A DNA stretch of 35,221 bases from Planctomycetota bacterium (lineage in GTDB: Bacteria > Planctomycetota > UBA11346): positions 1-35,221 of the forward strand of contig JBBQSO010000057.1 in the NCBI GenBank assembly GCA_038213805.1. The letters run 5' to 3'. Within the stretch, counting starts at the first letter, position 1, and every line of letters begins with the position of its first letter. A program made the translations under genes and the position numbers. Of this stretch, positions 13,308 to 34,023 are shown in pieces. The notes beneath the pieces are model-generated. The model was not told the origin of the DNA. It did no database searches and saw only the letters and a list, made by a program, of their open reading frames with translations.

Positions 13308-13342
13308 AGCTTAACCTGAAGGGCGCTCGCGCGCCCCGCAGC

Positions 13343-17369: not shown

Positions 17370-18494
17370 ATGCGTCCTCCGGCCCTGTGCATCCTTATCC
17401 TGTCTGCGCTGCTGTTGCTCTCGTGGGCTCCCGCCGCCCCTGCCGCGCAGGCGCCTTCAGCGAGTCTGCTGGGGTGGAACACCATCATTGAACGCCTGCG
17501 TGCCGGCGCCGCCGGACCGTACGCGGTCTACCTCGGCAGTCCCGACAACAAGCTGCCGCGGCTGCTTGCGGTCGGGGCGATTGCCACGCTCGACATCCCG
17601 GTGGTGGTGCTGCGTTCCGGCGATCAGGTGCGCAATCCGATGACCGACCGTCTGGTCGGCGGTGACCGCCTGCAGAATTTCTTCGGCGCCAGCGCCGGCA
17701 CCCTGCTGTTCCTTGATGGCGATGGCATGCCCATCCCGCAGCTCTCGATCCCCCAGGCGATGCATGGCAACGATGCCGAGCTGTTCGCCCTCTATTTCAG
17801 CTACGTCGCTGGCGCCCACTACAAGGCCATGTCGATCGCCGAATACTGCCGTGCCCTGGGCAAGGACCAGGTCGTGCTGCGCGCCCTGCGGCGCGTGAAG
17901 AGTGGTTTCAGCGGCCGCGAATTCGCCGCCGACGAGGCGCTGCCGAAGGCGCGCAACCACGTCAGCGGCGAGGCCGTGGATGCGTGGGCTGATCCAGGCG
18001 TCTTCCATATCTACACCGCCGCGGCGGATGGCCGCGTGTTCCTCGCCCAGGTCAATGAGATCGAGCGCGCCTTCGGGCGCCTCAACCCGCGCTTCACCCT
18101 GATCGTCCCCGAGGGCGAGGAGCCCGATATGGCGCGCCTGCCAGGAGTGCGCTGCGTACTCGCGCATGCCGCGCGCAGCGAACTGCTGCGCCTGGGCGCG
18201 AGTCCGCTGACCATCATCACCGCCGGCGGCCCGGACGCGCACGCCCGCAAGGGTATCCGGCTGGATGGCTTCCAGCCGGCGGATGTGATCGCCAAGCTGG
18301 TTGGGCTGCCGCTCGCCGATCTCGCGCTGGTCGATCGCGACATCCCTTATGGTGAAATGGACGAGGTTGCGGCATCCGCCATCGAGACTGCGGCGCCGCC
18401 GCCCGCAGCCGCTCCCGCCGCAGTCGCGCAGGCGCCCGTACCCGCGCCTGCCGCGATCGTGCCGCCGCTCAGCGCGGAAGGAGCGCAGCCATGA
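17370..18494 (+). CDS. Exported protein, probable tandem thioredoxin-like folds lacking CxxC
   Basis: Signal peptide; TLLFLDGDG...F..YVAGAHYKAMSIAEY resembles the SoxW-type thioredoxin C-terminal half; no CxxC; ATGA-coupled to the next gene. Confidence 0.65.
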   Translation: MRPPALCILILSALLLLSWAPAAPAAQAPSASLLGWNTIIERLRAGAAGPYAVYLGSPDNKLPRLLAVGAIATLDIPVVVLRSGDQVRNPMTDRLVGGDRLQNFFGASAGTLLFLDGDGMPIPQLSIPQAMHGNDAELFALYFSYVAGAHYKAMSIAEYCRALGKDQVVLRALRRVKSGFSGREFAADEALPKARNHVSGEAVDAWADPGVFHIYTAAADGRVFLAQVNEIERAFGRLNPRFTLIVPEGEEPDMARLPGVRCVLAHAARSELLRLGASPLTIITAGGPDAHARKGIRLDGFQPADVIAKLVGLPLADLALVDRDIPYGEMDEVAASAIETAAPPPAAAPAAVAQAPVPAPAAIVPPLSAEGAQP

Positions 18495-20104
18495 GTCTGT
18501 CCGAAAAGTCCGCCGCCATGGCCGGTGGCCCCGTCGTGGCACCCTCCGCCGTCGCCGGCCTCGGCCCGCGCCAGGCGCTTCGGCTCGCCTGCTTCTGGCT
18601 CGGCGGCCTCAGCCTGATCGCGACGGTGGTGCTGTCCTCCGCGCCGGCCACCGGCGTGGTGGCGACACTGGTCGCGGTCGCAGCGATGGGCTATGCGCTG
18701 GTCGGCGCGCCGGCCTGGGAGACCCGGCGCGCGTGGCCGCACGCGCTGGCGGTGCTGCTTGCCGCGCTGGCGGCTTTCGGCCTGTGCGCGAGCCGCTGCG
18801 GCAGCTACGCCGCTTATGCCGAATTCCTCGGCCTGCCCACCGCGGTCGCCGGCATCGTTCTGCACGGTGCGGTGGCGCTGGTCGCGCTGGTGCAGGCGCG
18901 CTACCGTCCGCAGGCCGTGCTGGTCACCGACCTCGCCATCGCGGTGGCCTGCGGCGGATCGCTGTTTTTCGCCACCGTGATGGCGGCCTCCGGGACCTGG
19001 TGCGGCGCGTGCTTCGCCATCCACGCGCTGATGGCCGTGCAGCTCGCTGACCTGGCGGTGGCGACGCGCGGCAGCGCCCGCATCGCGGTGCTGGCCACGG
19101 TGCTGGCCGCGGCCGGCGGCGCGAATGCGCTCTACCACCACCGCGACCTGCCGCCGCTGCGCAACGATCCCGGCGAGCTGCTCGCTTACCTGCGCGGCCT
19201 GTGGAGCGGGGACCTGCCGCCGCAACGCGTCGACCAGGTCAGCGAAGAGGTGCGCGAGGCGCAGCGCGCCGGGCGCGAGTCGGGCGCGCTGCGGGCGGTA
19301 CCAGGCGGCGCTGCGCCGCGCCCCACACCGCCGGCGGAGCGCGGCGCGCGCCCGGCGACCGGCAGGATTCCGGTCGCTGGAGCCACCGACCCGCTGCCGC
19401 CTGCGTCTACAGCGCGGCATGCGGTTCCTGCGCCGGCCGACGGAGAATCGCCAGCGGATTCCACGCCCGTAGCGGCTCGCCTGGAGCGCCCGGTCGCGGC
19501 GGCGGGTGCGCCCGCTGCGGATGCCCCAGCCACGCCGCTTGCACCGGTGTCCGTGCCCACCGCGCGTCCGATCGCGCTCGCCAACCACTGGGGCCAGGCC
19601 AGCGCGCCGGTGACCATGGTCTTCGCTCTCGACATGGGCTGCCCGGTGTGCGCGCAGCAGCTCGGCCAGGTGCTCGAGCTCTCCGACCTGATCAAGGCTG
19701 GGCGATTGCAGGTGCGCTTCCTGATCACCTACCGCAATCAGGCCTCACAGGCCACCGCCTCGCTCGCCTATGCCGCGGGCGTGGTCGGGGAGCGACCGCT
19801 GGTCGAATGTCTGGCCGCCTTCATGCAGCATCAGCGCGACATCGTCGTCACCGCCGATGCGATGACCTTCCTGCCTGCCGACTTCCCACCGCAACTGGCG
19901 ATCGCCACCGTGCGTCAGCACCAGGCGACCATCACCACGCTGATGACCGACGCAGTCAAGCTGAAGGACGCGCTGGGCGCGACCGGCGACCCGGCGATCT
20001 GGCTGATGGTGCCAGGGCAGGCGAAGCCGGCGCGCGAATTCCAGGGACTGACGATGTCGTCGATCATCCGCTTGGCGGCGATGAGCCTGGTGCCAGCGCA
20101 ATAG
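18491..20104 (+). CDS. VKOR-like membrane domain fused through a Pro/Ala linker to a DsbA-like domain
   Basis: CASRC...YAEFLGLP.A..G and WCGACFAIH (VKOR-like four Cys); WGQASAPVTMVFALDMGCPVC (DsbA-like); GDP at the cis-Pro position. Confidence 0.78.
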   Translation: MSLSEKSAAMAGGPVVAPSAVAGLGPRQALRLACFWLGGLSLIATVVLSSAPATGVVATLVAVAAMGYALVGAPAWETRRAWPHALAVLLAALAAFGLCASRCGSYAAYAEFLGLPTAVAGIVLHGAVALVALVQARYRPQAVLVTDLAIAVACGGSLFFATVMAASGTWCGACFAIHALMAVQLADLAVATRGSARIAVLATVLAAAGGANALYHHRDLPPLRNDPGELLAYLRGLWSGDLPPQRVDQVSEEVREAQRAGRESGALRAVPGGAAPRPTPPAERGARPATGRIPVAGATDPLPPASTARHAVPAPADGESPADSTPVAARLERPVAAAGAPAADAPATPLAPVSVPTARPIALANHWGQASAPVTMVFALDMGCPVCAQQLGQVLELSDLIKAGRLQVRFLITYRNQASQATASLAYAAGVVGERPLVECLAAFMQHQRDIVVTADAMTFLPADFPPQLAIATVRQHQATITTLMTDAVKLKDALGATGDPAIWLMVPGQAKPAREFQGLTMSSIIRLAAMSLVPAQ

Positions 20105-20245
20105 GCGGCGGAGTTCGCGTCGGCGGTGCCTGCTCGGCTGCCCGCCGGCGCACCATGAAACAGTGCGCTTCATCTTGCCAGGTTTGCGCCCCGATCCGCG
20201 CCCGCATGATCGGCGTCCTATCCACCTCCCAACCAGGAGCATTCC

Positions 20246-20560
20246 ATGCGTCGTCTCCATCCTCTCCTCATCCTCTGCCTGCTGTCGCTGGCCAGCGGTT
20301 CGGCATTCGCCGAAGTGCCCTCGGGCGCGACCTTCACCGCCGAATCGGGCGTCGCAGGCGGTGTAATGATGACCACCGTCGCAGGCAGCGTGAATTCCAT
20401 CACCGGTCTGCTCATGGGTCCTGGTCTTTACGTGATCATGGCCATCGGCGCCCTGCTCGCGCTTTACGGCTTCGGACGTGGCAACAAGGAGACCCTGTTC
20501 AGCGGCATCGGTCTGTTCGTGCTCGCCGCCATCATCAAGGGCGTGTTCGCCATCCTGTGA
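20246..20560 (+). CDS. Pilin-like protein (TraA/VirB2-like)
   Basis: AGGAG RBS; 104 aa; signal peptide ending SAFA and two hydrophobic helices split by a charged loop (GRGNKE); lies immediately before the TraL-like gene. Confidence 0.65.
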   Translation: MRRLHPLLILCLLSLASGSAFAEVPSGATFTAESGVAGGVMMTTVAGSVNSITGLLMGPGLYVIMAIGALLALYGFGRGNKETLFSGIGLFVLAAIIKGVFAIL

Positions 20561-20566
20561 TCCCCC

Positions 20567-20622
20567 GGACGCCGCCGTGCTGCCGCGCCTTCGTGCGCGA
20601 GCGCGCGGCGGCGTCCTTTCCC
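20567..20622 (+). terminator. Intra-operon hairpin after the pilin gene (attenuator/stabiliser)
   Basis: GGACGCCGCCG/CGGCGGCGTCC 11-bp stem followed by TTTCCC. Confidence 0.6.
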
Positions 20623-20680
20623 ACTCCCCCACGATGAGGTGGTGCCGGTATCGCCGCGCGGCGATGACGGACCATGAGCC

Positions 20681-21301
20681 ATGGCCAAGCCGTTCGAACT
20701 CCCGTGGACGCTCAATGACGAGAACGAATTCGGCATCCCCATGCTGCCGTGGTACGTCACCAACCAGGAGATGGGCCTCGCCGTCCTCGGCACCATTTTC
20801 ACGTATATCATTTGCTCGCCGGTGCTGGGCACCGGCCTGATCAACTTCGCGGCCATGGCGGTCAGCGGGGTGGTGATCATGCATTCCATGATGCGCTACA
20901 AGAACGGCAAGCCGGCGAGCTGGCTGTGGGACCTGCGTCTCGCGCTCGGGATGTTCCCGCTGCAGCGCGGCCTGCTCAAGGTCACGCGCCACGTGCGCTG
21001 GCTGTCCCAGCACCATCTCGCGCGGCCCTCACCATTCCTCACCGGCGTTGGGAAGGTCGGCGAGGATCTCACCATCTCGGCGCCGTGGATGGTGGTGCTG
21101 CCGCCGGTGACGAACTGGGCGCCCTGCTTTCCGCCGCGGCGGCGACGCGTGTTCTCGGCCAAAGCCGCACCGGCCCCGATCTGGTTCCAGGTCGCGAACG
21201 GCTTCGCCAACGTGGTCAACCCGCGCATCCCGGTGACCGTCACCTGGGAGCTCAAGCCAGAACGCACCTTGCCGCCGCCGACCGGCGGAAATCCGCCATG
21301 A
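20681..21301 (+). CDS. TraL/VirB3-like inner membrane protein with C-terminal extension
   Basis: LPWTLNDENEFGIP N-terminal motif, two TM helices, then KNGKPASWL; located between pilin and TraE-like genes. Confidence 0.6.
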   Translation: MAKPFELPWTLNDENEFGIPMLPWYVTNQEMGLAVLGTIFTYIICSPVLGTGLINFAAMAVSGVVIMHSMMRYKNGKPASWLWDLRLALGMFPLQRGLLKVTRHVRWLSQHHLARPSPFLTGVGKVGEDLTISAPWMVVLPPVTNWAPCFPPRRRRVFSAKAAPAPIWFQVANGFANVVNPRIPVTVTWELKPERTLPPPTGGNPP

Positions 21302-21687
21302 ATCAGCGTTACGACTTCTACGCCGACATGCTCGAGACCCACACCGAGATCGGCTACCTGTTGGTGATCGCGATTTCCCTGTTGGCCTTCAATGCCGCCA
21401 TCTCGGCTGTGCTCTGGCGCTGGCCCGGCGACGACGTCTACCTCGTCCCCGGCGTCGAAGGGGGTGGCATGGCCAATGTCACCTGGGGCGCTGCGCCGCC
21501 GCCCATCCGCGAAGCGGAACCGCATGATCCGCTCGAGGGCACGCCCACCATCGATCTGACTCCCGCACCACCCGCGTTGGTTCCGGAAGCGGCCGCTGCG
21601 CCGTCCGCCGCCGCCGCCGATCTGCCTTCGGCCGCGAAGAATTCCGGCACCCCGCCGGCCGCGACCGCCACCAGGCCTGCGCCATGA
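21298..21687 (+). CDS. Small bitopic protein resembling the TraE N-terminus with a Pro/Ala tail
   Basis: ATGA overlaps at both ends; one TM followed by DDVYLVPG. Confidence 0.6.
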   Translation: MNQRYDFYADMLETHTEIGYLLVIAISLLAFNAAISAVLWRWPGDDVYLVPGVEGGGMANVTWGAAPPPIREAEPHDPLEGTPTIDLTPAPPALVPEAAAAPSAAAADLPSAAKNSGTPPAATATRPAP

Positions 21688-22478
21688 ATCCGCCACTCGT
21701 CGTCAGCGAAACTCGGCGTGGGATCGAGGCGCCGTCGCGCGTCCGCGCGGCGCCCGATGCTGCGGCCGAACGCCGGCTGGCCGAGGGCACGCCGCTGGCC
21801 GCGGCCAAGGTCATCCCCTCCAATGCGCCCATGCCGCTGGCCGCGCAACGCGATTTCCGCGGCTGGATCGTGATCGCGATCCTGGTGCAGATCATCATCG
21901 GCATCGCCTTGAGCGTGGCGGTGATCAGCAAAGTCGCGAACCGCACCATCTACTATGCGCCGACCGCCGAGCGCATCGGTTCGAGCACCGCAGTGCGCGA
22001 AGCCACCACTTTCGAGGCGCTGACCACCGCGCAGATGCTGGTCGCGCGCATGGAGACCTACACTCCGGCCAGCGCCAGCACGGTGTGGGGCGTGGTACTG
22101 CCCTTCCTGCATCCCTCGCTGCACGAGAAGACGCGCGCCAACTATGAGGAGATCGCGCGCAAGGCTGAGCGCCTGTGGCAACACCGCGTCGCGGTGCCGC
22201 TCGGCGCGGCGATCGGCGGCCGCAACAACGGCCTGATCACCCTGGCGGTGTTCTACGACAGCATCGAGCTCACTGGGCGCGACGAGGCCAAGCGCGAGCT
22301 CAGCCGGCTCTCGCCCAAGGCCGCCTACCTCGAGTTTGTCATGGACGTGCCGACCCACGAGAACCCGCTCGGTCTGATCATGACCCGGTATCAGTCCTAT
22401 GACAAGGCTGACTGGATATCGCGCGGCTTCCCGGACATGTGGGATTCTTTCCGCAAGCTACCAGAAAAGCGCAGGTGA
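21684..22478 (+). CDS. TraE/VirB8-like protein
   Basis: Single TM, then TIYYAPT, TYTPAS, FLHPSL and a C-terminal ENPLGL motif typical of VirB8-fold proteins. Confidence 0.65.
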   Translation: MNPPLVVSETRRGIEAPSRVRAAPDAAAERRLAEGTPLAAAKVIPSNAPMPLAAQRDFRGWIVIAILVQIIIGIALSVAVISKVANRTIYYAPTAERIGSSTAVREATTFEALTTAQMLVARMETYTPASASTVWGVVLPFLHPSLHEKTRANYEEIARKAERLWQHRVAVPLGAAIGGRNNGLITLAVFYDSIELTGRDEAKRELSRLSPKAAYLEFVMDVPTHENPLGLIMTRYQSYDKADWISRGFPDMWDSFRKLPEKRR

Positions 22479-22481
22479 TCG

Positions 22482-23069
22482 GTGATCTTGCGCCAATACC
22501 GCTCGCTCGGCCTGCTGCCCGAGATCATCACCTTCGTGTTCCTGGTGGTCGCGGTGGTGACCGCCACCGGGGTGCTGTGGCGCATCGTCTGGCGGGATCC
22601 AGTGGTGCTGGTGCCCAATGCGCGCGGTTCCGGGCCGCTGCGGCCAGCGACCGCTGACGACACCTATCTGCGCCAGTTCTGCACCAATTTTCTGATCAAT
22701 TGGACGAGCTGGAACCAGCACTCGTACCAGTTTCGCAAGACGCAGGCGATCAGCCTGATGACCCCGGCGGTGCGCGCGCAATTCACCGAGATGGCGCGGC
22801 GCTCAGGTGAACTGGTCGCCAGCCTGTCGGAAAGCCAGACCTACCACCTCGCCAGCCTTGAGATCGCAGCCGTCGATGTGCGGCAGGAGTTGTGGCAGGC
22901 GCGCTTCGCCGGCGAGATGTTCACCTACTATGGTGGCGTCGGCGGACGACCGGATCCCTACAGCGGGATCCTCCTCCTGCACGCCCTGCATCCCACTCCC
23001 GAGAGCCCGCTCTGTCTCGAGGTGCTCGGTTTCAAGATCGACAAGTCTACCGCATTGGAGCCCCGATGA
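22482..23069 (+). CDS. TraE-like protein
   Basis: GTG start; TM then PVVLVP, DDTYLRQF, LMTP, SQTY and ESPLCL motifs. Confidence 0.65.
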   Translation: MILRQYRSLGLLPEIITFVFLVVAVVTATGVLWRIVWRDPVVLVPNARGSGPLRPATADDTYLRQFCTNFLINWTSWNQHSYQFRKTQAISLMTPAVRAQFTEMARRSGELVASLSESQTYHLASLEIAAVDVRQELWQARFAGEMFTYYGGVGGRPDPYSGILLLHALHPTPESPLCLEVLGFKIDKSTALEPR

Positions 23070-23827
23070 TCCGCCTGCTGACGCTCCTGCTCCTTTTCAC
23101 CGCCGCCGCCCGCGCCCCCGCCGAGACCGTCGACTGGTCGCTCGGCAGGTCGATCGACTGCGCGTTGGCGCCGGCGCTGCCGACGCGTTCGGTGACGCGC
23201 ACCGTGGTCTTCCCTGGTGGCCCGATCAGCGAGGTGCCGTCGTTCTGGAGCGAGGAGCAGCTGTTCGTCAAGATCATCCGCAACACCCTGGTCTTCCAGC
23301 TCCGCGACCCGCTCTTCAGCGGCACCATCCAGGTCTTCGATGACAAGGGCAATCTGTTCCTGCTCAATGTGCGCGCGGCGCGCGGTGGCGAGACCGTCGA
23401 CGACGTGCTGCTGATCCGCCCCCTTGAGACGGCCAGTGGCGCTGCGGCGCCGATGCCCGGCGACTCCGATGGTGCCGTGACCGAAATGATGGCGCACATG
23501 GTAGGTGGCGGACCAAACCCAGCGATCAGTGGATCCCTGGTCACCCATGTGGACGAGCACGGCAAGGTCGTGCCCGGCCGTCGCATCTTCGCTGACGACA
23601 CCCTCACCCTCGAGCTGTTCAAGGTCTACCAGGGTCCCGGCCTGCGTGGCTACGAATGCCTGGTGCGCTATGCGGGCGCGCGCACCGTGCGCCTCGACCA
23701 GCAGCGTCTGTGGTTTCCCGGCGCGCTTGCGGTCTACGCCAGCAACCAGGTGTTCATCAATCCGCAGACCGTTCAGGTCGAGATCCAGCCCAACCAGGCG
23801 ATCCGGGTCTTCTACGTCGCCGAATGA
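23066..23827 (+). CDS. TraK/VirB9-like exported core-complex protein
   Basis: Signal peptide; beta-rich (TRTVVFP, GNLFLLNV, YQGPGLRG, RVFYV); located between TraE-like and TraB-like genes. Confidence 0.6.
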   Translation: MIRLLTLLLLFTAAARAPAETVDWSLGRSIDCALAPALPTRSVTRTVVFPGGPISEVPSFWSEEQLFVKIIRNTLVFQLRDPLFSGTIQVFDDKGNLFLLNVRAARGGETVDDVLLIRPLETASGAAAPMPGDSDGAVTEMMAHMVGGGPNPAISGSLVTHVDEHGKVVPGRRIFADDTLTLELFKVYQGPGLRGYECLVRYAGARTVRLDQQRLWFPGALAVYASNQVFINPQTVQVEIQPNQAIRVFYVAE

Positions 23828-23857
23828 CTGGCCCACGCCGAGCCCCCCGAGTGACGC

Positions 23858-26800
23858 ATGTCTGATCCTCTCGATCCCCTGGACCCCGACCGCAATCTGC
23901 CGCCCGCAGGCGGCGGTAGCGCGCCCGACGACGAGGACGGCGACCCGGCCGCCGCGGAGCGCCTGCTCGCGCAGCGCGGCCAGACTGCTGGCCGCGCTGG
24001 CCGGTTCCTGCGCGACGCCGCCAGCACCGCCGCCAAGGAGAAGGACAAGACCGTACTGATCGTCGCCGTGGTCGGCGGCGTGCTGCTGATCGCCATCGTC
24101 GGCATCGCGCTGCTTGCCCGGAAGCAGCAGACCGCTCCGTCCCAGGTGGTCTACACCCCGTCCTTCGACGTGAACATGTCCTCGCAAGAGGAGCTGCGCG
24201 GCTTCACCAAGAAGACCGCGCAGGAAGTCAACGAGATCGACGCCCAGCTCAAGGAACTGAGCGCGACCATGAAGGGCCTGGTCGACCGCCAGGACAAGAC
24301 CGAGGGCTTCGTGCGCGATGCCCTGAAGCAGGCCAGGGAGGACCTCGACCGCGTCGGCAATGAGAAGCTGCGCGCCGCCGAAGAGATCGCCAAGATCGGC
24401 GCCAAGGCCGCCGATCCGCGCACCACCTCCATCCTCAAGGAGTTCCGTGACTCGCTGACCGGCCTCAAGCAGTCGCCGGCCGAAGCCAAGGCGCGCGCAG
24501 CGATGCTGCTGCGCCAGGCCGGGGTGCCCGAGGACCAGATCCGCAACATCCTCGCCGAGGCCGCGCAGCAGGCGGGGCGCATCGCCGTCGGTGACATCGC
24601 CGAGGCGGCCCTCGGCAAGGCCGAGATCGATACCCTGCCGGAGTGGCTGCGACCGCACGTGCCGGGTGTCCGCGACCTGGTCTACGGACTGGCCGCGGCC
24701 CAGGGCCGCTTCTACCCCGACCAGGTGCTTGCCGAGGTCAAGGTCCACCTGCGGGCGCGTGAGCACGCGCGTAGCGCCGCGCTGACCGACGACCTGGTGC
24801 GCCAGGTCGCCACCGTCGCGCGCGTGCGCCGCGAGAATCTCACCCCGGAGATGGAGGACCTGCTGCCCTATCTGGTCACGCTGCGCGACGCGCGCAAACT
24901 CGGGCCCAGTGATCGTCAGGGCATCGCCGACCTGGTCTGGTCGGCGCGCGAGCGCCTGCCGGAAGCCACCAATCCCGGCCAGATGCTGGCGATCTGCCAC
25001 GTTGTGGCGCGCGCCGTCGGCGCGGTCGCGACCAAGCCCGGTGAGGACCTGAGTCGCAAGCCGCTCGACGACGACAGTGCGCGCCTCGCCACCGAGGTGG
25101 TGACCACCGCGGTGCTCAACGCCATCCAGCTGGGCCGCGGCCAGGCCGAGCAGTACGAGATCGCCAGCCGCGCGCTCGCCAACTACCTCGACACCGCGCG
25201 CCTGACCGCCAGCGACGAGCAGAAGAAGCAGGTGGTGCTGCGCGCCATGGCCGCCGCGTCCAAGCGTCAGCAGGCTGACAAGGCCGAGAAGGCCGAGCAG
25301 GCGCCGCCGGCACCGGCGGAGAAGGCCACAGCGGCGCGCCCGCACGGCCCCGACCCGGCGGATCTGCTGTTCTTCGGCCCGCTGCGACTGGACCGCGGTC
25401 AGGCGCAGCGCGCCCTGGTCTTCGCCCTGCCGCTGCTGCTCCAGTCCAATGGCATCGATCCGGCGGGGGTGAAGGGGCCGGCGGCGCTGATCGCTGCCTT
25501 CGAGCAGGTCCCGCGCGTGGTCAGCGAGGCGCTGCCCCCCGCCCTGGGCAAAGCCATGGGCGGCAAGGATTACTTCACCACGGCGATCCCGCAGCTCAGC
25601 TACGCGCTGCGCATGGGCGAGAGCCTCGCGGGCATCCCGCTGACGGTCACGCCGGGCCGGACCGACGAGGACAGCCGCGCGGCGCGGGTCATGCGCGGCG
25701 TGGCGATCGGCGCGGTCTATGGGCCATTCGTGCACGACGAGACCAAGGCCAAGGCCGCGGCCGGCGATGCCCTCGCCGCGGTCGAGGCCGCTCCGCCACT
25801 CACCCCGGCGCTGGCCGCCGACCTCGCGCGTCTGCCCGCTGAGCGTCCGTACGCGGCGATCATCACCGCCTACGACGGCTTCAGGCCGGGCCGCTTCGGT
25901 TACCCCGCGGCGCGCTTCCAGGAGCTCGCCGGCCGCATCGCCCAGCTCACCACCCAGGTGCGCGAGCTGAAGTCCGTGGTCGCCGAACTCTTCCAGTCCG
26001 ACCAGGAAGGCACCTACGAGGAGGACGCCCGACTGCTCATCCCGCTGGCTGTGGCCGCACACGACGACGGGCAGATGCCGCTCAACGATCTGTTCGCGCT
26101 GGTACGCGCCGACCTCCACACCTTCACCGCACTGTTCCTCGCCGAGGGCCGGGTCAGCCGCGAAACCCTGGGCGTGCTCATCCCCAAGTACGCCGCAGCG
26201 ATGGTCGAAGAGTCCGGGGGCGCGACCGCGCTGGTCCAGACCGCCACCGAGATCGTGCCGAGCACCATCCAGGAGATCCACCAGCAGCGCGCACCCGCCA
26301 TCACCGCCGACAACCTGAAAGAGGTCGTGCAGCAGCTGGGCGATGAGGCGCTGCCGCTGGTCGAGCGCAAGCTCGTCCGCCAAGTGGTGGTGGCGCGCGT
26401 CATGCCGCGCATCCGGCGCGGCGGCGCGCTCGCCGACAAGGCCCTGGTGGCGAGCGCCGGCGAGACCGCCATGCGCCGCGCCGTCGAGCTGGTGGCGGCA
26501 CCCTACACGCCGGTGCGCATCGACGGCTGGGCGACGCAGATCACCAACGAATGCCGCGCCATCCTCGCCGGCGGCGAGGCCCAGCCCAACCCGGCGACGG
26601 TCGGCCGTGGGGCCGGCGGCCCAGGCGGGAAAGCCGGCTACTGGCCGGTGCCGACCATGCTCGCCGTCACCGGCGGCGGTCAGCTGGTCGGCACCAGCAC
26701 CTCGCTGATGCGCACCCGCCAGATCATCATTCCGGCCAACACCTATGGCAACGCGCACCTCCAGACCGGCGTCGACGCCGAGATCGGCGGGCGCGGCAAC

Positions 26801-27382
26801 GTGCCGGTGCTGTTGCAGATGGATTTCGACTGGGTCGGACCCGCGAACAGCCACATCGTCATGCGTGGCTGCCGGGTCTCGGGGGTGGCCAACGCCATGG
26901 CGGGCCCGGAGCGCGTCGCGGTCGACCTCAAAACGCTTAGCTACGTATTCCCCTCCGGCCGCGAGATCAACAGCCAGGTGAATGGTTTCATCAGCGACAA
27001 CCTCAGCGGGCAGTATGGCGCGCTCGGCACCTACAAGTGGAACGCCGACAAGGTGCTGCCCTACGCGGTGCTGTCGGGTGGCCTGTCGGGCGCCGGTGAT
27101 GCGCTGAAATCCAACGGCCAGACCACCATCGTGAGCAACACCACGACCACCGTGGCGAACTCCGGCAACAAGCTCCAGCAGGCCGGCTACGCCGGAATCG
27201 CGGACGGCTTCGGCCTGATGGCCGACTACGTCAAGGCGACGCTCAACGACATCAAGCCCTCGGTCTCGGTGGTGAACGGCCAGCGCGTCAGCGTAGTGCT
27301 GCTCGAGCCGGTGGTGCTGAACGTGCCCGAAGCCGAGTTCTCGTATCTGCAGAACGGCACCGGTGGAGGCTTCGCGCCATGA
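23858..27382 (+). CDS. traB: TraB/VirB10-like protein, unusually long (1174 aa)
   Basis: N-terminal TM and coiled coil; C-terminal IPANTY..A.LQTGVDA...PVLL...GPAN...GCRVSG.A...ERV.VDL..LS and V..GQRVSVVL motifs. Confidence 0.82.
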   Translation: MSDPLDPLDPDRNLPPAGGGSAPDDEDGDPAAAERLLAQRGQTAGRAGRFLRDAASTAAKEKDKTVLIVAVVGGVLLIAIVGIALLARKQQTAPSQVVYTPSFDVNMSSQEELRGFTKKTAQEVNEIDAQLKELSATMKGLVDRQDKTEGFVRDALKQAREDLDRVGNEKLRAAEEIAKIGAKAADPRTTSILKEFRDSLTGLKQSPAEAKARAAMLLRQAGVPEDQIRNILAEAAQQAGRIAVGDIAEAALGKAEIDTLPEWLRPHVPGVRDLVYGLAAAQGRFYPDQVLAEVKVHLRAREHARSAALTDDLVRQVATVARVRRENLTPEMEDLLPYLVTLRDARKLGPSDRQGIADLVWSARERLPEATNPGQMLAICHVVARAVGAVATKPGEDLSRKPLDDDSARLATEVVTTAVLNAIQLGRGQAEQYEIASRALANYLDTARLTASDEQKKQVVLRAMAAASKRQQADKAEKAEQAPPAPAEKATAARPHGPDPADLLFFGPLRLDRGQAQRALVFALPLLLQSNGIDPAGVKGPAALIAAFEQVPRVVSEALPPALGKAMGGKDYFTTAIPQLSYALRMGESLAGIPLTVTPGRTDEDSRAARVMRGVAIGAVYGPFVHDETKAKAAAGDALAAVEAAPPLTPALAADLARLPAERPYAAIITAYDGFRPGRFGYPAARFQELAGRIAQLTTQVRELKSVVAELFQSDQEGTYEEDARLLIPLAVAAHDDGQMPLNDLFALVRADLHTFTALFLAEGRVSRETLGVLIPKYAAAMVEESGGATALVQTATEIVPSTIQEIHQQRAPAITADNLKEVVQQLGDEALPLVERKLVRQVVVARVMPRIRRGGALADKALVASAGETAMRRAVELVAAPYTPVRIDGWATQITNECRAILAGGEAQPNPATVGRGAGGPGGKAGYWPVPTMLAVTGGGQLVGTSTSLMRTRQIIIPANTYGNAHLQTGVDAEIGGRGNVPVLLQMDFDWVGPANSHIVMRGCRVSGVANAMAGPERVAVDLKTLSYVFPSGREINSQVNGFISDNLSGQYGALGTYKWNADKVLPYAVLSGGLSGAGDALKSNGQTTIVSNTTTTVANSGNKLQQAGYAGIADGFGLMADYVKATLNDIKPSVSVVNGQRVSVVLLEPVVLNVPEAEFSYLQNGTGGGFAP

Positions 27383-27462
27383 GTCGTCGCCCGTCCGCGT
27401 GCACCCGCCGTTGCCAGGTTTCCACCGCTGGCGCGGTCACGCATACTGCGCCTCCGAACCCC

Positions 27463-28209
27463 ATGCGCACCGCCCTGATCTCCTGCCTGCTCCCCGCCCT
27501 CGCCCTGCTCGCCGGTTGCGGCACCCAGCGCGACGAGGTCCCGGGCAACGTCCGCCCCGGCTCGATCGAGGAGGTCACCGGCCGCGTCGACGGCTTCGGC
27601 AATGGCTCCGCAGATGGCCGCGGCGGGGGCCAGCTCGAGCAGATCGGCGTGGTGCCGATCACCGGCAACGTCAAGCCGGTGATCCCGCTGGTCAAGCCGC
27701 CCGAAGTCATCTCCTTCTACGTCTTCCCGCGCAAGAGCCGCGACGGCATGTCGTTCCGCGACGGCGTGTGGATCCACCGCGTCATCCGCCCCTTCGCCTG
27801 GGGCGTCGATGAGGCGATGCGCAACGACCGCCTCAAGCTCTCCAGCCTGACCAACCTGCGCCTCGACGACAACGGCCAGCTGGTGATCGACCAGGAGAAG
27901 ACCATCGAACCGCCCACCTCCGACGTCCAGGGACTGCGCGACATGGCCCAGCATCTGCCCTGGCGCGCGACCGACGGCGGTCAGCCGCTGTCGCGCACCA
28001 CCGTGGTCTTCCCGAATAGTGGTCAGGCGGTGACGTCGACCGCGCCAGCGGATCGCGCCCCGGCAGTGGTCGGCCCGAACGGGTCGGTCAACATGCAGGA
28101 GATCGAGCGCGCCATGGCCGAGGCCCAGCAGCGCGTGCGCGAGACCCAGCAGCGCCAGCGCAGCGGCAGCTCGGCCGCAGCCATCCCGCCCGCGACGCCG
28201 ACCAAGTAG
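27463..28209 (+). CDS. traV: TraV-like outer-membrane lipoprotein
   Basis: Lipobox LLAGC; PPEVISFYVFP..SRDG....GVWIHRVIRPFAW resembles the TraV motif; lies between traB and traC. Confidence 0.7.
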   Translation: MRTALISCLLPALALLAGCGTQRDEVPGNVRPGSIEEVTGRVDGFGNGSADGRGGGQLEQIGVVPITGNVKPVIPLVKPPEVISFYVFPRKSRDGMSFRDGVWIHRVIRPFAWGVDEAMRNDRLKLSSLTNLRLDDNGQLVIDQEKTIEPPTSDVQGLRDMAQHLPWRATDGGQPLSRTTVVFPNSGQAVTSTAPADRAPAVVGPNGSVNMQEIERAMAEAQQRVRETQQRQRSGSSAAAIPPATPTK

Positions 28210-28229
28210 CGGCTGGCAGGGACAGCACC

Positions 28230-31200
28230 ATGGCAGTCACAGAAAAGAAGATCCTCGGACGCAGCACGCGCGTCGACCTGGTCGACAAGGTGCGCTCCAC
28301 CGACTCGGTCTCCAATTACCTGATGGCCACCTCCTACGACGAGGAGGTCAAGATCTACACCCTCGCCGACCTCTCCGTCGGCGTGCTGCTCGAGATCACC
28401 CCGCTGGCCGCGAGCGTGCTCAGCGACGACGAGCTGCAGACCTACAGCGATTCGATCGCGGTGGCGTTGTCGCGCCTGCCCGAGCACGCCATCATCCAGA
28501 GCCACATCCTGCCCGCCGCCAACGTCGATCAGGATATCGAGAGTTACTACGCGGCCGGTTCGGGCGACGACCATCCGGTGCTGGCCACGCACGAGCGCAT
28601 GGTCGCGGACATGTACCGCCGCTCGGTGTCCAAGCCGCTGTTCGCCTTCCAGTACGGCGAGGGCGGCTTCAAGACCAAGCGCTACCGCGTGCTGCTCAGC
28701 ATCGTCGTGCGCCCGGATGAGATGGTCGGCGGCGGCAAGGCCAGCACCCTCGACTTCCTCAGTTCGCTGGTCGGCCGCATCCGCCGCGGCAGCGGCGTGC
28801 CGGCGATCCGCCGCGCGCCTGCCGAAGAACGCTACCTGACGATGCGCGAGCGCCTCTACAAGCGCCTGCAGGAGACCGCACGCCGCCTCGAGGGCACCCT
28901 GCGCACCAACCACCTGCAGGTGCGACGCCTGCCGCCCACCGAACTGGTGGCGTTGACGCGCATGCTGATGTGGCCCGAGGCGTCGCTCGGTGCCAAGCCG
29001 GAGCATGATCCCTACCAGCAACTCGCCACGCAGATCCCGCTCGGCGACGTCGCGGTTGAATGCTCGAGCGGGTCGGTGCTGTCGGACGGCTGGGTCTACA
29101 AGTCCCTGAGCATGAGTTCGATTCCGCGCTCGACCACGCCCGGCGCCACCACGCTGCCGCAGGCCGCCCTCGGGCTTTTCACCCTGCTCGATTTCATCGG
29201 CGACGGATTCCTGACCGTCTCGGCGCACTGCAAGCCGGTCAACGACGTGCGTAGCTTCCTTGACAAGCGCCGGCGTTTCATCCGCGGCGGGTTCGCCATG
29301 CCCTCCAAGGTCGACCAGCTGCTGCGCGATTGCGATCTGACCTCCTACTTCATCGAGACCGACCGGCGCAAGATGTTCGACGCGCAGATCGTGATCTGCG
29401 TGCGCGGCCGCAACGAGCGCGAGGCCCAGGAGCAGGCCGAAAAGGTGCGCGACAAGGCCGCCGACGTCGGCATCGACTGCCGGGTCGAGCAGCACTACGG
29501 CCCATCGCTGCTCTTCCAGAGCCTGCCCTTCGGCTTCGCTCCGACCCTGCCCGAGGCGCGCCGCCTGTGGTTGATGCCCGACCGCGCGGTCGCCGACTTC
29601 CTGCCGTTGTTCATGCTTTCGCGCGGCACCAAGCGGCCTGCGCTGATGCTGCACAACCGCCTCGGCGAGCCGTTCTTCTTCAACCCCTTCGACTCGCCCA
29701 CCGCGGCGCACTGCGTGATCTGCGGTGAATCGGGCTCGGGCAAGAGCTTCTTCACCAACTACCTGATGTTCTCGGCCCTGCGCAAGGCCGATGCCCAGGT
29801 CTTCGCCATCGACAAGGGACGCAGCTACGCGACCTCGACGGCGATGCTGGGCGAAAAGGGCTCCTACAATAACATGGGGCTGTCGAGCAAGACCTGCATC
29901 AACGCCTTCGCCGGCACGCTTGAGAACGCCTCCGCCTTCCTGCGTCAGTTCATCGCCCACCTCGCCAGCCAGGTCGAGACCGACCGCCTGAACAGCGACC
30001 AGATGGGCATCGTCGACGAATGCATCACGCGCTCCTTCCTGCGCAAACAGCAGACCTTCAGCTGGCGGGACTTCGCCGAGATCCACCAGCGCTGGCCACG
30101 CGGCGCGTGGGTCGACCGGCTGCGCAAGCGCATGGTCATCCGCCCGCTCGACGAGATGCAGCGCAGCGGCATCGACCAGCTCAAGGCCAAGGACAGCGGC
30201 CGTTCACCGGAATTCGAGATCTACACGCGCGCCCTGCTGCGCTCGCGCCGCGTGCTCAACCGCGAGACCCGCCAGCTCATCAAGGAGGAGACCTTCGATG
30301 ACGCCAAGTCCATCGACCAGGAGACCAAGCGCTGGCTCGAGAGCCGCGGCTTCCTGATCGAGGACCTGATCGGGGACGACGGCGCGCGCCGCGCCTGCGT
30401 GCTCTATGTGAACTCCACCCAGGAGCGCGCGCTGGACATGGACGGCTTCGCCTTCGAGCCGCTGCGCGACGTCCTGATCCTCGACGTGGCGCGGCGCGAG
30501 GACCTGGGCGAGCTCGCCGAGGCCGGCGCACGCATCGTCCATCCCCAGGCCTACCTCGACGAGCAGCGCCTGCGCTTCACCGCCGAAGTGCGCGCCGAGC
30601 ACGCCAACGCCGCGCCGGAGGTGGTCGCAGACATTGTCGCCCAGCGCATGTCCGAACTGAGTGCGGTCGCCTATTTCGACAGCCTCGACGGCACTGTGCG
30701 CATGCAGTTCGAGGTGTTTTTCAGCGACCTCATCCGCGAGTTGCAGGAGCACCGCAGCGAAGCGCTCGCCGCGCCGATCGTCAGCCGCCTCGCGGCCTAC
30801 CACGGCAACGGGCCGCTCGCCGGCTTCTTCGATGGCGAGACCCAGTTCCGCCTCGAAGGCAAGAAGCTTTGCACCTTCGAGCTGCAAGAACTCTCCTCCG
30901 CGGGCGAGCACCTGGTCGCCGCGGTGGTCGGCACCCTGCTACAGATGCTGGTGCTGTACTGCCAGAGCGAGCATCTCAAGGGCGGCGGTCCGCGCGCCTA
31001 CCTGAAGTACATCGTGCTCGACGAGTTCTGGGCGTTGCTCGCGGTGCCGATGGTCGCCGATCTGGTCATCAACGGCCTGCGCACGCTGCGCAAGCACAAC
31101 ACTGCGATCGTCTGCATCTCGCAGCTGGTGCGCGACTTCGCCACCACCGAGCGCGGCAAGGTCGTGCTCAGCGCCTCGCAGCACCGCATCCTGCTGCGTC

Positions 31201-31535
31201 AGCCGCCGGACGTCATCGCCGAGCTCGACAAGCACCTCGACTGGTCGGACGAGCAGAAGGCCCTGATGTACACCGTGGTCTCGGCCAAGGGCATGTTCTC
31301 GGAGGCGATCTTCGACATCCCCAATCAGGGCATCTGCGAGGTGGCGCGTTTCGTGCCCACGCCCTACGCCTACTGGATCTTCACCACCGCGCCCGAGGAC
31401 GTGCGTCAGCGCGACCTGCTGCGCAATGAGTTCCGGGCGCGCGGCTATCCCGCCGACGAGGCCCTCGACCGCGCCCTGCAGGACTGCTCAGAGCGTTGGC
31501 CGAACGGCTTCTCGGCTGGCGAGAAGAGGCGCTGA
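28230..31535 (+). CDS. traC: TraC/VirB4 family ATPase
   Basis: F.FNPFD, Walker A HCVICGESGSGKSF, IDKGRSY, CINAF, FFDG, Walker B IVLDEFW and RTLRKHN....ISQ motifs. Confidence 0.92.
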   Translation: MAVTEKKILGRSTRVDLVDKVRSTDSVSNYLMATSYDEEVKIYTLADLSVGVLLEITPLAASVLSDDELQTYSDSIAVALSRLPEHAIIQSHILPAANVDQDIESYYAAGSGDDHPVLATHERMVADMYRRSVSKPLFAFQYGEGGFKTKRYRVLLSIVVRPDEMVGGGKASTLDFLSSLVGRIRRGSGVPAIRRAPAEERYLTMRERLYKRLQETARRLEGTLRTNHLQVRRLPPTELVALTRMLMWPEASLGAKPEHDPYQQLATQIPLGDVAVECSSGSVLSDGWVYKSLSMSSIPRSTTPGATTLPQAALGLFTLLDFIGDGFLTVSAHCKPVNDVRSFLDKRRRFIRGGFAMPSKVDQLLRDCDLTSYFIETDRRKMFDAQIVICVRGRNEREAQEQAEKVRDKAADVGIDCRVEQHYGPSLLFQSLPFGFAPTLPEARRLWLMPDRAVADFLPLFMLSRGTKRPALMLHNRLGEPFFFNPFDSPTAAHCVICGESGSGKSFFTNYLMFSALRKADAQVFAIDKGRSYATSTAMLGEKGSYNNMGLSSKTCINAFAGTLENASAFLRQFIAHLASQVETDRLNSDQMGIVDECITRSFLRKQQTFSWRDFAEIHQRWPRGAWVDRLRKRMVIRPLDEMQRSGIDQLKAKDSGRSPEFEIYTRALLRSRRVLNRETRQLIKEETFDDAKSIDQETKRWLESRGFLIEDLIGDDGARRACVLYVNSTQERALDMDGFAFEPLRDVLILDVARREDLGELAEAGARIVHPQAYLDEQRLRFTAEVRAEHANAAPEVVADIVAQRMSELSAVAYFDSLDGTVRMQFEVFFSDLIRELQEHRSEALAAPIVSRLAAYHGNGPLAGFFDGETQFRLEGKKLCTFELQELSSAGEHLVAAVVGTLLQMLVLYCQSEHLKGGGPRAYLKYIVLDEFWALLAVPMVADLVINGLRTLRKHNTAIVCISQLVRDFATTERGKVVLSASQHRILLRQPPDVIAELDKHLDWSDEQKALMYTVVSAKGMFSEAIFDIPNQGICEVARFVPTPYAYWIFTTAPEDVRQRDLLRNEFRARGYPADEALDRALQDCSERWPNGFSAGEKRR

Positions 31536-32929
31536 TGGCGACGGCGGACCTGCTCACCGCGCTGCCCGACCTGGCTGCGCTGCCCAACCCGCACCTGTTG
31601 GTGCTCGGTGAATGGCGTGGCGACGTCGCCCGGGTGCTCGCGCACCGCCTTGCGCAGCAGCCGGGTGGCGCCGGTCTGGTCGCGATCAGCCGTCAGGAGG
31701 GGGCGGACATCGCCAGCGCGCGCACCGTCGATGGACGCGAGCTCGACCTGCTCGCCGGTCTGGCCGCGGGCAACGACGGGCTGGCCAGCCTGCGCGGTCT
31801 GCTGCTTGACCTTGCCGCGACTGAGTGCGGGCCTGCGGCGCCGCCCGCGGTCGCGGCCTGCCTGGAGCGCCTCGCCAACGCCGCCGCCGGCGCCAACCCG
31901 CAGCCGGTCGCCGGCTTGGCGCTGCTCGCCATGCGCTTCCCGCCCGGCACCGCTCCGGCGCGCGCCGCCGCACTGATCGATGACATGGTCGGCCACGCCG
32001 CCGCAAGCGGACTGCCGGCGCCCCAGGCGCGGCGCGGCCCCTGGTCGCGTGAGGACGCGCGTGCCGCACGCCTCGCACTCGAGCGCGGCGAGCTCGCTGC
32101 GGACGGGTTTGCCCTGCTGGTCGCCGCCCGTGATGCCGAAGACTGGCGCCCCTATGCGGCCGAACTCGTGCCCGACCTCTCGCCCGGGGCGCTCGCCGCC
32201 GAACGCGATCTCGCCGAGACCCGTTTGCGCCGGCAGCCCGAGTACCGCGCCGCGCCCGCAGATGCACTGGCCGCACTCGCCGCGCACCACGTCGAGGCGC
32301 GGATCTGGGAGATCGCCTGGAACCGCGCGCTCGAGGCGCAGGCCACCCCGCTGCCGCTCGGTTCCGAGAACGTGCTGCACGCCCTGGCCGAGGAGCCCGC
32401 GGCGCGGCCGCTCGCCGATCTGTTGCGCGGCATCCTTGGCGGTCGCACACGCCTGCCCACCTGGTGGGACGGCGGCCTGTGGCTGATCGGCGATCCCGGG
32501 CGCCATCCGCTGCGCCTCGCGGTGCTGCTCGATGCTCTGTTCGAGCGCGCCGCGCTGCCCGCCGTGGTCGGCAGGCCCAAGGTGCTGATGGTCGATGGCG
32601 AATCGGCGCTGGCCGCGCCGGCGCCGCGCGCCGCGCTCGAGCGCCTGCTGCGCGGCGGGCGTAAGCACCACCTCTCCGTGGTGCTGCTGCTCGGCGACCA
32701 GGAACCGCCTGGCGGCGCCATCGGCGAGCTCTGCGCCAACCGCCTGGTCGACGCGCGCAGCGTGGCCCGCCTGCCCGCGCGCCTGCGCCCCACGGCCGCC
32801 GTCGACCATGCCGCGCCACGCGGCTGGTTGACCACCAGCCAGACCTCGCACCCCGCGCCACTCGGCGCGTGGTTCACCTCCGACGAGGTCGCCAGCGGCG
32901 ATCGTCTGCTCACGGGAGCCCGCGCATGA
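31535..32929 (+). CDS. Degenerate VirB4/HerA-FtsK-like P-loop protein (pseudo-ATPase)
   Basis: TGATG-coupled to traC. HLLVLGEWRGDV (Walker A position), LVAIS, KVLMVDGESALA (Walker B position) and LRGGRKHHLSVVLL are collinear with the TraC motifs. Confidence 0.65.
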   Translation: MATADLLTALPDLAALPNPHLLVLGEWRGDVARVLAHRLAQQPGGAGLVAISRQEGADIASARTVDGRELDLLAGLAAGNDGLASLRGLLLDLAATECGPAAPPAVAACLERLANAAAGANPQPVAGLALLAMRFPPGTAPARAAALIDDMVGHAAASGLPAPQARRGPWSREDARAARLALERGELAADGFALLVAARDAEDWRPYAAELVPDLSPGALAAERDLAETRLRRQPEYRAAPADALAALAAHHVEARIWEIAWNRALEAQATPLPLGSENVLHALAEEPAARPLADLLRGILGGRTRLPTWWDGGLWLIGDPGRHPLRLAVLLDALFERAALPAVVGRPKVLMVDGESALAAPAPRAALERLLRGGRKHHLSVVLLLGDQEPPGGAIGELCANRLVDARSVARLPARLRPTAAVDHAAPRGWLTTSQTSHPAPLGAWFTSDEVASGDRLLTGARA

Positions 32930-34023
32930 CCAGTTCCTCCGCCTCCACCGCCCGCGTCACGGCCGGCATCGCCGCCCTCGCCCTGCTCGGGGGCTGTGGC
33001 GACGAGCGCCACGCGCGCGACGATCTGCCGCTCACTCCGCAGCAGGAGCACGATGTGTTCCTCGCCTCCGACAATCTCGGCCCCGACACCGACGTCATCG
33101 TCCTCGCCAACGTGCCCAAGGCGCGTTACGAGAACGGCGCCATCGTCCTGACCGGCGGCAAGCAGCTCTACGTGGTGCAGCCGCACGCCTGGCGGACCTA
33201 CACCGGCACCGCACTCAGCGCCGAGGAGGCCCAGCGCGAGGTGGCGCGCGCTGCGCGTCTCGAAGTCGCGATCACGGACATCGCCGCGGCCGCCAGCGAG
33301 CTCAAGCAGTACCTCGAGGGCCGCTCCAGCGAGGCCGCGCACGCCAGCGCGCGCCTCCAGGAGGAGGACGCCACCAGGCGCAGCGGCCAGGAGGTCCAGC
33401 AGCAGCGACTGCTCGAGGAGGCGGCGCGCGTGCACCGCGCGCGCGACCAGGAAATCGGTCGCATCACCAATGCACGCGACGACCAGGTCGCCGCGGTCTA
33501 CAAGGAGGGCGGCAACGAGATCGAGGGGATCACCGCCACCTTCGGCCGTCAGGTCGACGAACTCAACCAGCGCTGGGCGAAGGTCGAGGCCGACGTCCTG
33601 GCGGCCTATCGTGCCGCCGGCGAGAAGCTCACGGTCAGCCAGAAGCTCGAGGTCGAGATCGCGCACTCCAAGAACATGGATCAGACCTACCTGCTCAAGC
33701 AGGAGGAGCTGCACGAGCGCCAGCGGCAGGAACTGAGCGAAAGCAACCGCAAGCGCATCGCCGAACTGCACCGCGACCGTGATGCCGAGGTCGCCAAGGC
33801 GCGCACCGCGTCGGCGGCGCGCATCGATGACGCGCGCCGCCTCTACGAGGCCAAGGCCGAGCGCATCCGCCGCGCCGCCGACGATCAGCTGGCGGCGGTG
33901 CGGGCGCGCGAGGACAACGCGGCGGCCGCGGGCGGCAACGCTGCCTCCACGGCGCCCGCCGCCGCACCGACGCCGGCACCGTCCGTCACGCCCGCCACGG
34001 GGGATGGCAATGGCGGTAAATAG
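32926..34023 (+). CDS. Lipoprotein with long coiled coil
   Basis: ATGA overlap; lipobox LLGGC; about 200-aa E/Q/R/A-rich helical region. Confidence 0.8.
   Translation: MTSSSASTARVTAGIAALALLGGCGDERHARDDLPLTPQQEHDVFLASDNLGPDTDVIVLANVPKARYENGAIVLTGGKQLYVVQPHAWRTYTGTALSAEEAQREVARAARLEVAITDIAAAASELKQYLEGRSSEAAHASARLQEEDATRRSGQEVQQQRLLEEAARVHRARDQEIGRITNARDDQVAAVYKEGGNEIEGITATFGRQVDELNQRWAKVEADVLAAYRAAGEKLTVSQKLEVEIAHSKNMDQTYLLKQEELHERQRQELSESNRKRIAELHRDRDAEVAKARTASAARIDDARRLYEAKAERIRRAADDQLAAVRAREDNAAAAGGNAASTAPAAAPTPAPSVTPATGDGNGGK

Follow-up and report, generated by a model that had tools for sequence, protein, structure and literature searches.

We identified a 464-residue open reading frame (ORF464; 31535..32929, + strand) that lies directly 3' of traC, the gene for the VirB4-family ATPase of a divergent F-like type IV secretion system (T4SS) cluster in an uncultured Planctomycetota bacterium. 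The DNA analyzed here (the window; 35,221 nucleotides, JBBQSO010000057.1) is a complete contig of a 5.5-Mb metagenome-assembled genome that is 90% complete and has a GC content of ~70%; the cluster is encoded on the + strand, beginning at ~17.3 kb and reaching the contig end. ORF464 is a paralogue of the C-terminal ATPase domain of TraC. It has lost the residues for ATP binding and hydrolysis, keeps an invariant Arg/Lys motif, is predicted to have the fold of the VirB4 C-terminal domain, follows traC in other genomes, and is under purifying selection. Based on these findings, ORF464 is probably a conserved non-catalytic paralogue that acts as an accessory or regulatory subunit of the TraC motor. 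VirB4 is the sole ATPase common to all T4SSs, and the regulation of its ring, like the reason for its duplication, is poorly understood. A dead paralogue that is cut down to the ATPase domain and keeps the inter-subunit Arg/Lys motif would provide a clean and testable case of a pseudo-enzyme subunit for a secretion motor.

Relationship between ORF464 and TraC

The traC gene (28230..31535, + strand) encodes a 1101-aa F-type VirB4-family ATPase (PF11130, E value 6.1e-24; P-loop_TraG, E value 4.8e-15; TIGR02746, E value 1.7e-68, which is under the curated cut-off) in which Walker A (GESGSGKS) and Walker B (LDEF) are both intact. At the traC/ORF464 junction (31521..31537, + strand), as read directly from the sequence, the purine-rich GAGAAGAGG is followed by 5 nt and then by the ATG of ORF464 (31535-31537), which has one base in common with the TGA of traC (31533-31535), giving TGATG. 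The next gene starts with an in-frame ATG at 32926, which in turn overlaps the ORF464 stop codon (32927-32929; ATGA). The overlapping codons at the traC/ORF464 junction suggest that the two genes are translationally coupled. An alternative TTG start codon at 31496 would extend the product to 477 aa. The genome contains a single copy of ORF464. An earlier note on this DNA, made from the sequence and its translations, had given the coordinates, the length of 464 aa, the intact frame, and the overlaps with both neighbors correctly, and the four motif pairs that it had set side by side are all found in the ORF464 and TraC translations.

Compared directly by BLASTP, ORF464 and TraC matched with a best E value of 2.4, and this match was confined to LRGGRKHHLSVVLL/LRTLRKHNTAIVCI. 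Searches of ORF464 against Pfam, NCBIfam (even at E values of 0.01 and 0.1), PADLOC, and PDB sequences returned no matches, and the protein reached none of the curated thresholds of PF11130, PF19044, TIGR02746, and TIGR00929. Among 1.84 billion proteins, we identified 12 representatives of an ORF464 family with E values ≤1e-3 (7 with ≤1e-10 and 4 with ≤1e-30), the identity of which to ORF464 ranges from 90% down to about 22-34%. Word-indexed protein searches gave no more than two members, and a metagenome scan with the family alignment gave no further relative. A word-indexed search of longer proteins, which is weak evidence, gave no longer fused relatives. The family alignment used below has 15 rows, including two genome-derived members, with identities from 90% down to 20%.

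Using hhalign, we found that the profile of the 15 members matches that of four Planctomycetota TraCs with a probability of 95.8% and an E value of 6.6e-9 over 192 columns. The stretch that aligns significantly comprises residues 193-388 of ORF464 (32111..32698, + strand) and residues 748-966 of TraC; both the Walker B remnant and the RxxRK motif described below fall within it. In control experiments, the reversed TraC alignment gave an E value of 0.69 and 20 column shuffles gave E values of 0.26-0.99. The family profile also matched pairs of Planctomycetota TraCs (E values of 1.2e-7, 1.5e-6, and 2.8e-5), while the E values were 0.029 against one single TraC and 0.25 against two canonical 868-aa Pseudoalteromonas TraCs. 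Similarly, a family hidden Markov model picked up TraC at three related loci, each time as two collinear segments (E values of 7.7e-10, 6.6e-7, and 1.1e-5 in a small database) and, in a genome search, the TraC of a further Planctomycetota genome, G420 (E value of 2.5e-4). Among PDB sequences, the family profile gave weak matches to the GRKYG motif of HerA (E values of 0.84 and 1.9), with a glutaredoxin ahead of them (E value of 0.44). Because the profile match is specific to the neighboring TraC lineage, it argues for duplication of the local traC and not for recruitment of a generic P-loop protein; judged by these comparisons, ORF464 most likely originated by duplication of the 3' half of the traC of its own lineage.

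With permissive settings, hhalign aligned the two proteins collinearly across the whole ATPase domain, placing residues 8-455 of ORF464 on residues 482-1058 of TraC, and ORF464 is ~130 residues shorter than the matching part of TraC. The significantly matched region begins ~90 residues upstream of the point from which solved VirB4s match the TraC profile (position 838-848 onward). We note that TraC is itself long, with 1101 aa compared to 868 aa in the canonical Pseudoalteromonas TraC, and that the extra length falls between Walker A (499-506) and Walker B (931-932). Residues 748-838 of TraC, which are part of this extra stretch and lie upstream of the start of the match to solved VirB4s, are common to TraC and ORF464.

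An AlphaFold2 (AF2) model of ORF464 from the single sequence was poor, with a predicted local distance difference test score (pLDDT) of 42.9, while the model made with 15 sequences had a pLDDT of 83.6 and a predicted template modeling score of 0.64. This model has a RecA-like HerA/FtsK-type C-terminal ATPase fold. In VIA-align, the top match was the C-terminal domain of Thermoanaerobacter pseudethanolicus VirB4 (4ag5; Z score of 19.0 over 292 residues, root-mean-square deviation of 4.1), followed by HerA (4d2i; Z score of 18.5), DndH-C (18.1), TrwB (14.7), and R388 TrwK (7o42; 13.9). Further matches were to Cag-beta (14.3), TcpA (13.8), and 7ovb_A of the Legionella type IV coupling complex (13.5), and lower ones to FtsK (13.2), EccC (12.3), and RecA-family proteins (~10). 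Foldseek returned 16 matches with E values ≤1e-3, of which those listed were almost all HerA chains, the top matches among them (E value for HerA of 9.4e-6), and the language-model neighbors of ORF464 in the ESM Atlas were TrwB, AAA_10, and DUF87 clusters (scores of 0.94-0.95). Structure prediction and a Foldseek search had been proposed in the earlier note as a check on its view that ORF464 is a VirB4/TraC-type paralogue, and that view is supported by the predicted RecA-like fold together with the lineage-specific profile match.

These data bear on the possibility that the likeness to TraC reflects chance or the composition of an Ala/Arg/Leu-rich protein encoded in DNA of 70% GC and unrelated to P-loop ATPases. 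The BLASTP E value, the empty Pfam, NCBIfam, PADLOC, and PDB sequence searches, and the poor single-sequence model are in agreement with such a protein. By contrast, the profile-profile E value lies far below those of the composition-preserving shuffles, the structural match to the VirB4 C-terminal domain is independent of it, and the motifs keep the same order across the entire domain. We therefore regard a chance resemblance as extremely improbable. The pairwise motif likeness between ORF464 and TraC is not above chance; the likeness in profile and fold is.

Residues lost and retained in the ORF464 family

The permissive alignment sets residues 25-32 of ORF464 (GEWRGDVA; 31607..31630, + strand) on the TraC Walker A motif GESGSGKS, and LVAIS on VFAID, and thus reproduces two pairings given in the earlier note. 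The strand ahead of Walker A (NPH-strand) is conserved in the family. Among the Walker A columns, the first Gly alone is conserved: neither Lys nor Ser/Thr is found in any of the 12 members with an N-terminus, compared to GxxGxGKS in all four TraCs. The Walker B remnant, as defined in the family alignment, is K349-VLMV-D354-G355 (32579..32599, + strand). In this remnant, K349 is nearly invariant and corresponds to the invariant K926 of TraC, and position 354 is acidic in 12 of the 15 members. At position 355, which corresponds to the catalytic Glu (E932) of TraC, only one of the 15 members has Glu, and ORF464 has Gly. The counterpart of the sensor Gln (Q965 of TraC) has also been lost in the family. 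With the Walker A Lys/Ser, the catalytic Glu, and the sensor Gln gone, ORF464 should neither bind ATP in the canonical manner nor hydrolyze it. The claim that the ATPase site is dead through loss of the Walker A Lys and the Walker B Glu, originally made for ORF464 alone, holds across the family.

Invariance in the family is confined to R373, R376, and K377 (15 of 15 members), which form the motif R373-G-G-R376-K377 (32651..32665, + strand) and match R951-x-x-R954-K955 of TraC, where the counterparts are present in all four sequences. This RxxRK motif sits 19-22 residues after Walker B. By TrwB residue numbers, the arginine finger of TrwB is 18 residues from Walker B, which would be about the same spacing. 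R373 or R376 may be the equivalent of this finger. Arg375 of TrwB is reported to work in trans as an arginine finger (PMC9886983).

Compared to TraC, ORF464 has the same RecA-like HerA/FtsK-type fold as the C-terminal domains of TraC/VirB4 proteins (4ag5 and 7o42) and shares, in collinear order, the strand preceding Walker A, K-hhhh-D, RxxRK(H), and a C-terminal P-x-P...W..T..(D/E)V motif that is common to the ORF464 family and TraC. It differs from TraC in the three losses described above and in the absence of the N-terminal TraC_F_IV/VirB4 domain, for which there was no Pfam match and which precedes the start of the alignment at TraC residue 482. On the basis of Walker A, the catalytic Glu, the N-terminal domain, and the curated thresholds, ORF464 does not belong to the VirB4/TraC ATPases, although it has their fold and their RxxRK motif.

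Alternatively, ORF464 could be a divergent but active ATPase that binds or hydrolyzes nucleotide through a non-canonical P-loop. The conservation of the first loop Gly and of the strand before it would fit this idea, as would the conserved Walker B strand, in which most members (12 of 15) have an acidic residue, and the Arg/Lys motif. However, in the 12 members with an N-terminus, the P-loop columns past the first Gly are not conserved, with neither Lys nor Ser/Thr kept, the catalytic Glu is restricted to one member, and the sensor Gln is lost. Such an activity is therefore very unlikely.

Conservation and a candidate role in the TraC motor

We compared the window with four other genomes (G003, G004, G015, and G420) and with a related locus (L021). 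The gene for ORF464 is located directly 3' of traC in all four genomes. In G015, it has a GTG start codon one base past the traC stop codon, and in G420, its ATG overlaps the traC stop codon, as judged by coordinates. The homologue in G004 (locus L012, contig C193, 3385-4535) is read in two frames around ambiguous bases (X); in its N-terminal piece, the loop reads 'AHGLIAGKDRDRAR'. In a family-level survey, the gene was found in 5 of 48 genomes, including that of the window. In a phylum sample, 5 of 401 genomes had profile matches with E values ≤0.001, two of which were weak (G161 and G142, the latter with an E value of 1.6e-4); the G161 matches are HerA/TrwB-like ATPases.

The ratio of nonsynonymous to synonymous substitution rates (dN/dS) between ORF464 and its orthologue in G003 is 0.16. 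For the neighboring genes compared with G003, it is 0.044 for the 3' part of traC and 0.17-0.33 for the others. Hence, ORF464 is under purifying selection. The earlier note had named dN/dS across orthologues as a check and had considered that frameshifts and neutral evolution would speak against its interpretation. Evolution is not neutral, whereas one orthologue, that in G003, is indeed frameshifted, with a dN/dS of 0.20 after the shift.

A hetero-oligomer with TraC, as the earlier note had suggested, is plausible. For ORF464 as an accessory subunit of TraC, we propose the following sequence of events. ORF464 would be made stoichiometrically with TraC from the overlapping start and stop codons and would dock on the TraC ATPase domain via the conserved inter-subunit face marked by the RxxRK motif. 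Once docked, it would function as a non-hydrolyzing accessory or regulatory subunit. Two geometries can be envisaged: ORF464 may intercalate in the TraC ring and donate or mask an arginine finger, or it may add a further tier to the machine at its cytoplasmic base, under the TraC hexamer. A more specific version, in which TraC and ORF464 form a mixed assembly (an alternating ring of the F1 alpha3-beta3 kind, or a second tier) and the dead subunit provides its invariant arginine(s) in trans to the TraC active sites, appears unlikely. If true, it would represent a VirB4 motor built of catalytic and non-catalytic paralogues. F-type systems are not known to have a VirB11; ORF464, in such an assembly, could stand in functionally for the missing third ATPase tier.

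Several observations weigh against ORF464 as a subunit of the TraC motor. The AF2 model was built on 15 sequences only, and the N-terminal (Walker A) part of the permissive alignment is on its own not significant (E value of 0.21). A maximum likelihood tree of the C-terminal core (23 rows) carries little information on the origin of the family, with long-branch artefacts and HerA-like rows inside the family. The suggestion that R373 or R376 may be equivalent to an arginine finger is based on spacing. Moreover, the family diverges faster than TraC, with identities of 23-25% in G015, G420, and G004 compared to 38%, 33%, and 25%, respectively, for TraC. The G003 copy is frameshifted by a single-base insertion at nucleotide 540 of the ORF. 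Finally, L021 (6992-11315), which encodes a TraC with 76% identity and is otherwise collinear, is without ORF464: the traC stop at 10285 is followed by 28 nt and then by a homologue of the lipoprotein gene downstream of ORF464 (start at 10314). More distant clusters (TraC 25-38% identical) have the gene, so its absence from L021 is most simply explained by a loss. Nevertheless, ORF464 is dispensable, or has been lost, in at least one lineage and is not indispensable to every such cluster.

In G003, which is congeneric with the genome of the window, there is no equivalent of window positions 20105-30802. This gap of 10.7 kb extends from the end of a VKOR gene to residue ~858 of TraC and could be a recent deletion or a misassembly. 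Because the ORF464 frame in G003 is lost together with the T4SS core, the loss fits a function that depends on the machine; because dN/dS is still 0.20 after the shift, either the decay is of recent date or an assembly error accounts for one of the two lesions. At the junction of the gap (contig C43; L004 ~9545-9639), G003 has ~95 nt of unrelated sequence, and the traC 3' remnant there is under apparent constraint (dN/dS of 0.044).

The same observations can be used to argue that ORF464 is a functionless, decaying duplicate of the 3' half of traC, the frame of which is open through youth or by chance: the gene is absent from L021 and frameshifted in G003, it evolves faster than TraC, and its product has no catalytic residues. 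On the other hand, the window, G015, G420, and the metagenomic members all have an unbroken frame, even at identities as low as 22-26%, and three residues are invariant; dN/dS is like that of neighboring genes; the signal in only 15 sequences sufficed for a confident fold prediction; and the G003 frameshift goes with the deletion of the T4SS core, as expected if a dependent function was lost. Taking these points together, we find mere decay highly improbable and retain a regulatory or accessory role in the TraC motor as the preferred explanation. With L021 and G003, the divergent F-like T4SS cluster documented here in uncultured Planctomycetota comes with natural presence/absence variants.

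Coupling proteins, precedents, and the surrounding cluster

A pseudo-ATPase of this fold could also act other than via TraC, as an adaptor that binds substrates, the relaxosome, or the coupling protein and thereby serves as a recruitment platform or chaperone on the cytoplasmic side of the T4SS. The fold and motif data are also compatible with such an adaptor, and structural matches to type IV coupling proteins (T4CPs) are strong (TrwB, Cag-beta, TcpA, and 7ovb_A). A gene for a large T4CP is part of the related G420 cluster, and the ~160 model residues that are unaligned to the VirB4 C-terminal domain (292 of 464 residues are aligned) could form a binding surface. However, the sequence likeness is specific to the neighboring TraC lineage and does not extend to T4CPs, the invariant residues belong to the ATPase inter-subunit motif and not to the helical region, and the gene is joined to traC by overlapping codons, whereas the T4CP gene is kilobases away or on another contig. 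We therefore consider an adaptor of this kind doubtful, though by no means negligible, and continue to favor a subunit of the TraC motor.

The earlier note had suggested that such an adaptor might work in place of a missing coupling protein, and this part of its proposal did not hold. The cluster of G420 includes, ~4 kb downstream, a coupling-protein-like open frame of 1219 aa, of which the 967 aa scanned match TrwB_AAD_bind, T4SS-DNA_transf, and TraG-D_C; G015 has a TrwB-like frame of 1324 aa on the same contig. The genome of the window itself contains an orthologue of the G420 gene, split over two contig ends apart from the window contig (C123:11624-12593, at a contig end, and C138:253-1122, at a contig start; 34% and 30% identity, respectively). 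Since the window ends two genes past ORF464, the absence of a coupling protein from it means little. The Pfam models TrwC and Relaxase had no match in the genome of the window, which, at 90% completeness, does not establish absence. We also considered ORF464 itself as a T4CP (VirD4/TrwB/TraD) and rejected this possibility because it has no match to TrwB_AAD_bind, T4SS-DNA_transf, or TraG-D_C and no Walker A. By inspection, without a formal prediction, no N-terminal membrane anchor is evident in its sequence, and its structural match to TrwB (Z score of 14.7) is below that to VirB4 (19.0).

The closest precedent of ORF464, and the sole one located in the literature searched, is RvhB4-II of the Rickettsiales rvh T4SS (PMC4676284), a VirB4 paralogue without conserved ATPase active sites that is conserved across the lineage. 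It is described as diverging more rapidly than RvhB4-I and is proposed to join the rvh machine alongside the active paralogue. Both RvhB4-II and ORF464 are VirB4 homologues without active-site residues that are conserved in a lineage beside an active copy. They differ in that RvhB4-II, as described there, has a VirB4-like, full-length size, is part of a P-type system, and has its gene at a distance from the other rvh loci, whereas ORF464 consists of the C-terminal domain only, is part of an F-like cluster in Planctomycetota, and has codons that overlap those of the active traC.

The hexameric HerA ATPases (4d2i; Sir2-HerA and DUF4297-HerA defense complexes) share the fold of ORF464, and their GRKYG motif, followed by a hydrophobic strand, weakly matches the RxxRK motif of ORF464. 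ORF464 differs from them in that no HAS-barrel was detected, Walker A is lacking, the context is a T4SS, there is no PADLOC match, and its sequence likeness is specific to TraC. The degenerate FtsK-like domains of EccC/EssC in type VII secretion (4nh0, 4n1a, 6tv1, and 9jv8) have the same superfamily fold (Z scores of 10.7-12.5). These domains are regulatory, with degenerate or low activity, and stand beside the active motor domain of a secretion system; most of them keep nucleotide binding. In EccC/EssC they are fused in one polypeptide, while ORF464 is a separate protein without a P-loop. Literature searches, with subscription journals outside their coverage, gave no description of a protein like ORF464 or of a pseudo-ATPase of type IV secretion.

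The T4SS cluster is headed by a gene for a VKOR-thioredoxin fusion (18491..20104, + strand; Thioredoxin_4, E value 5.7e-5; VKOR, E value 2.4e-4), for which the Thioredoxin_4 match scores 23.8 bits against a cut-off of 23.2 bits and the VKOR match is under its cut-off. Such a fusion also heads the G420 cluster, upstream of it (L017:264-1697), and may be a disulfide-bond system dedicated to the T4SS machine. Next are a TraE/VirB8-like ORF (22482-23069, + strand; VirB8, E value 7.6e-5; TraE, E value 2.2e-3) and a TraK_C-like ORF (22892-23827, + strand; TraK_C, E value 3e-5), both with weak Pfam matches that are at or under the cut-offs. The traB-like gene (23858..27382, + strand) encodes a 1174-aa protein with a PF03743 match (E value 1.4e-15) and a match to NF010289 TraB that is under the cut-off (E value 1.3e-6). 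Its TrbI domain is confined to residues 958-1153, and the N-terminal ~950 aa are without a Pfam match; the same long architecture is found in G015 (1200 aa), G420 (1199 aa), and L021 (1228 aa). Between traB and traC, a gene for a 276-aa lipoprotein (27379..28209, + strand; LLAGCG lipobox, no Pfam match) presumably occupies the place of TraV, as judged by gene position only.

The gene downstream of ORF464 (32926..34023, + strand), the ATG of which overlaps the ORF464 stop codon, encodes a 365-aa lipoprotein (LLGGCGD lipobox), the C-terminal two-thirds of which are charged and Glu/Arg/Ala-rich. The traC-ORF464 pair is, therefore, bracketed by two lipoprotein genes, neither of which has a family match.

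Just upstream of the T4SS cluster, the window contains a small gene for an RRM_1 RNA-binding protein (16655-17143, - strand; E value 7e-20). In a 937-aa frame (10768-13581, - strand), the NDH-2 (Pyr_redox_2) domains begin at residue 498, and in a 454-aa frame (13777-15141, + strand), the MsrA domain comprises residues 301-453; these two frames either have long N-terminal extensions or are ORF calls that are over-extended in GC-rich DNA. Finally, a 950-aa protein (780-3632, - strand) combines a Golvesin C-terminal domain (E value 1.8e-21) with bacterial Ig-like domains (Big_9).

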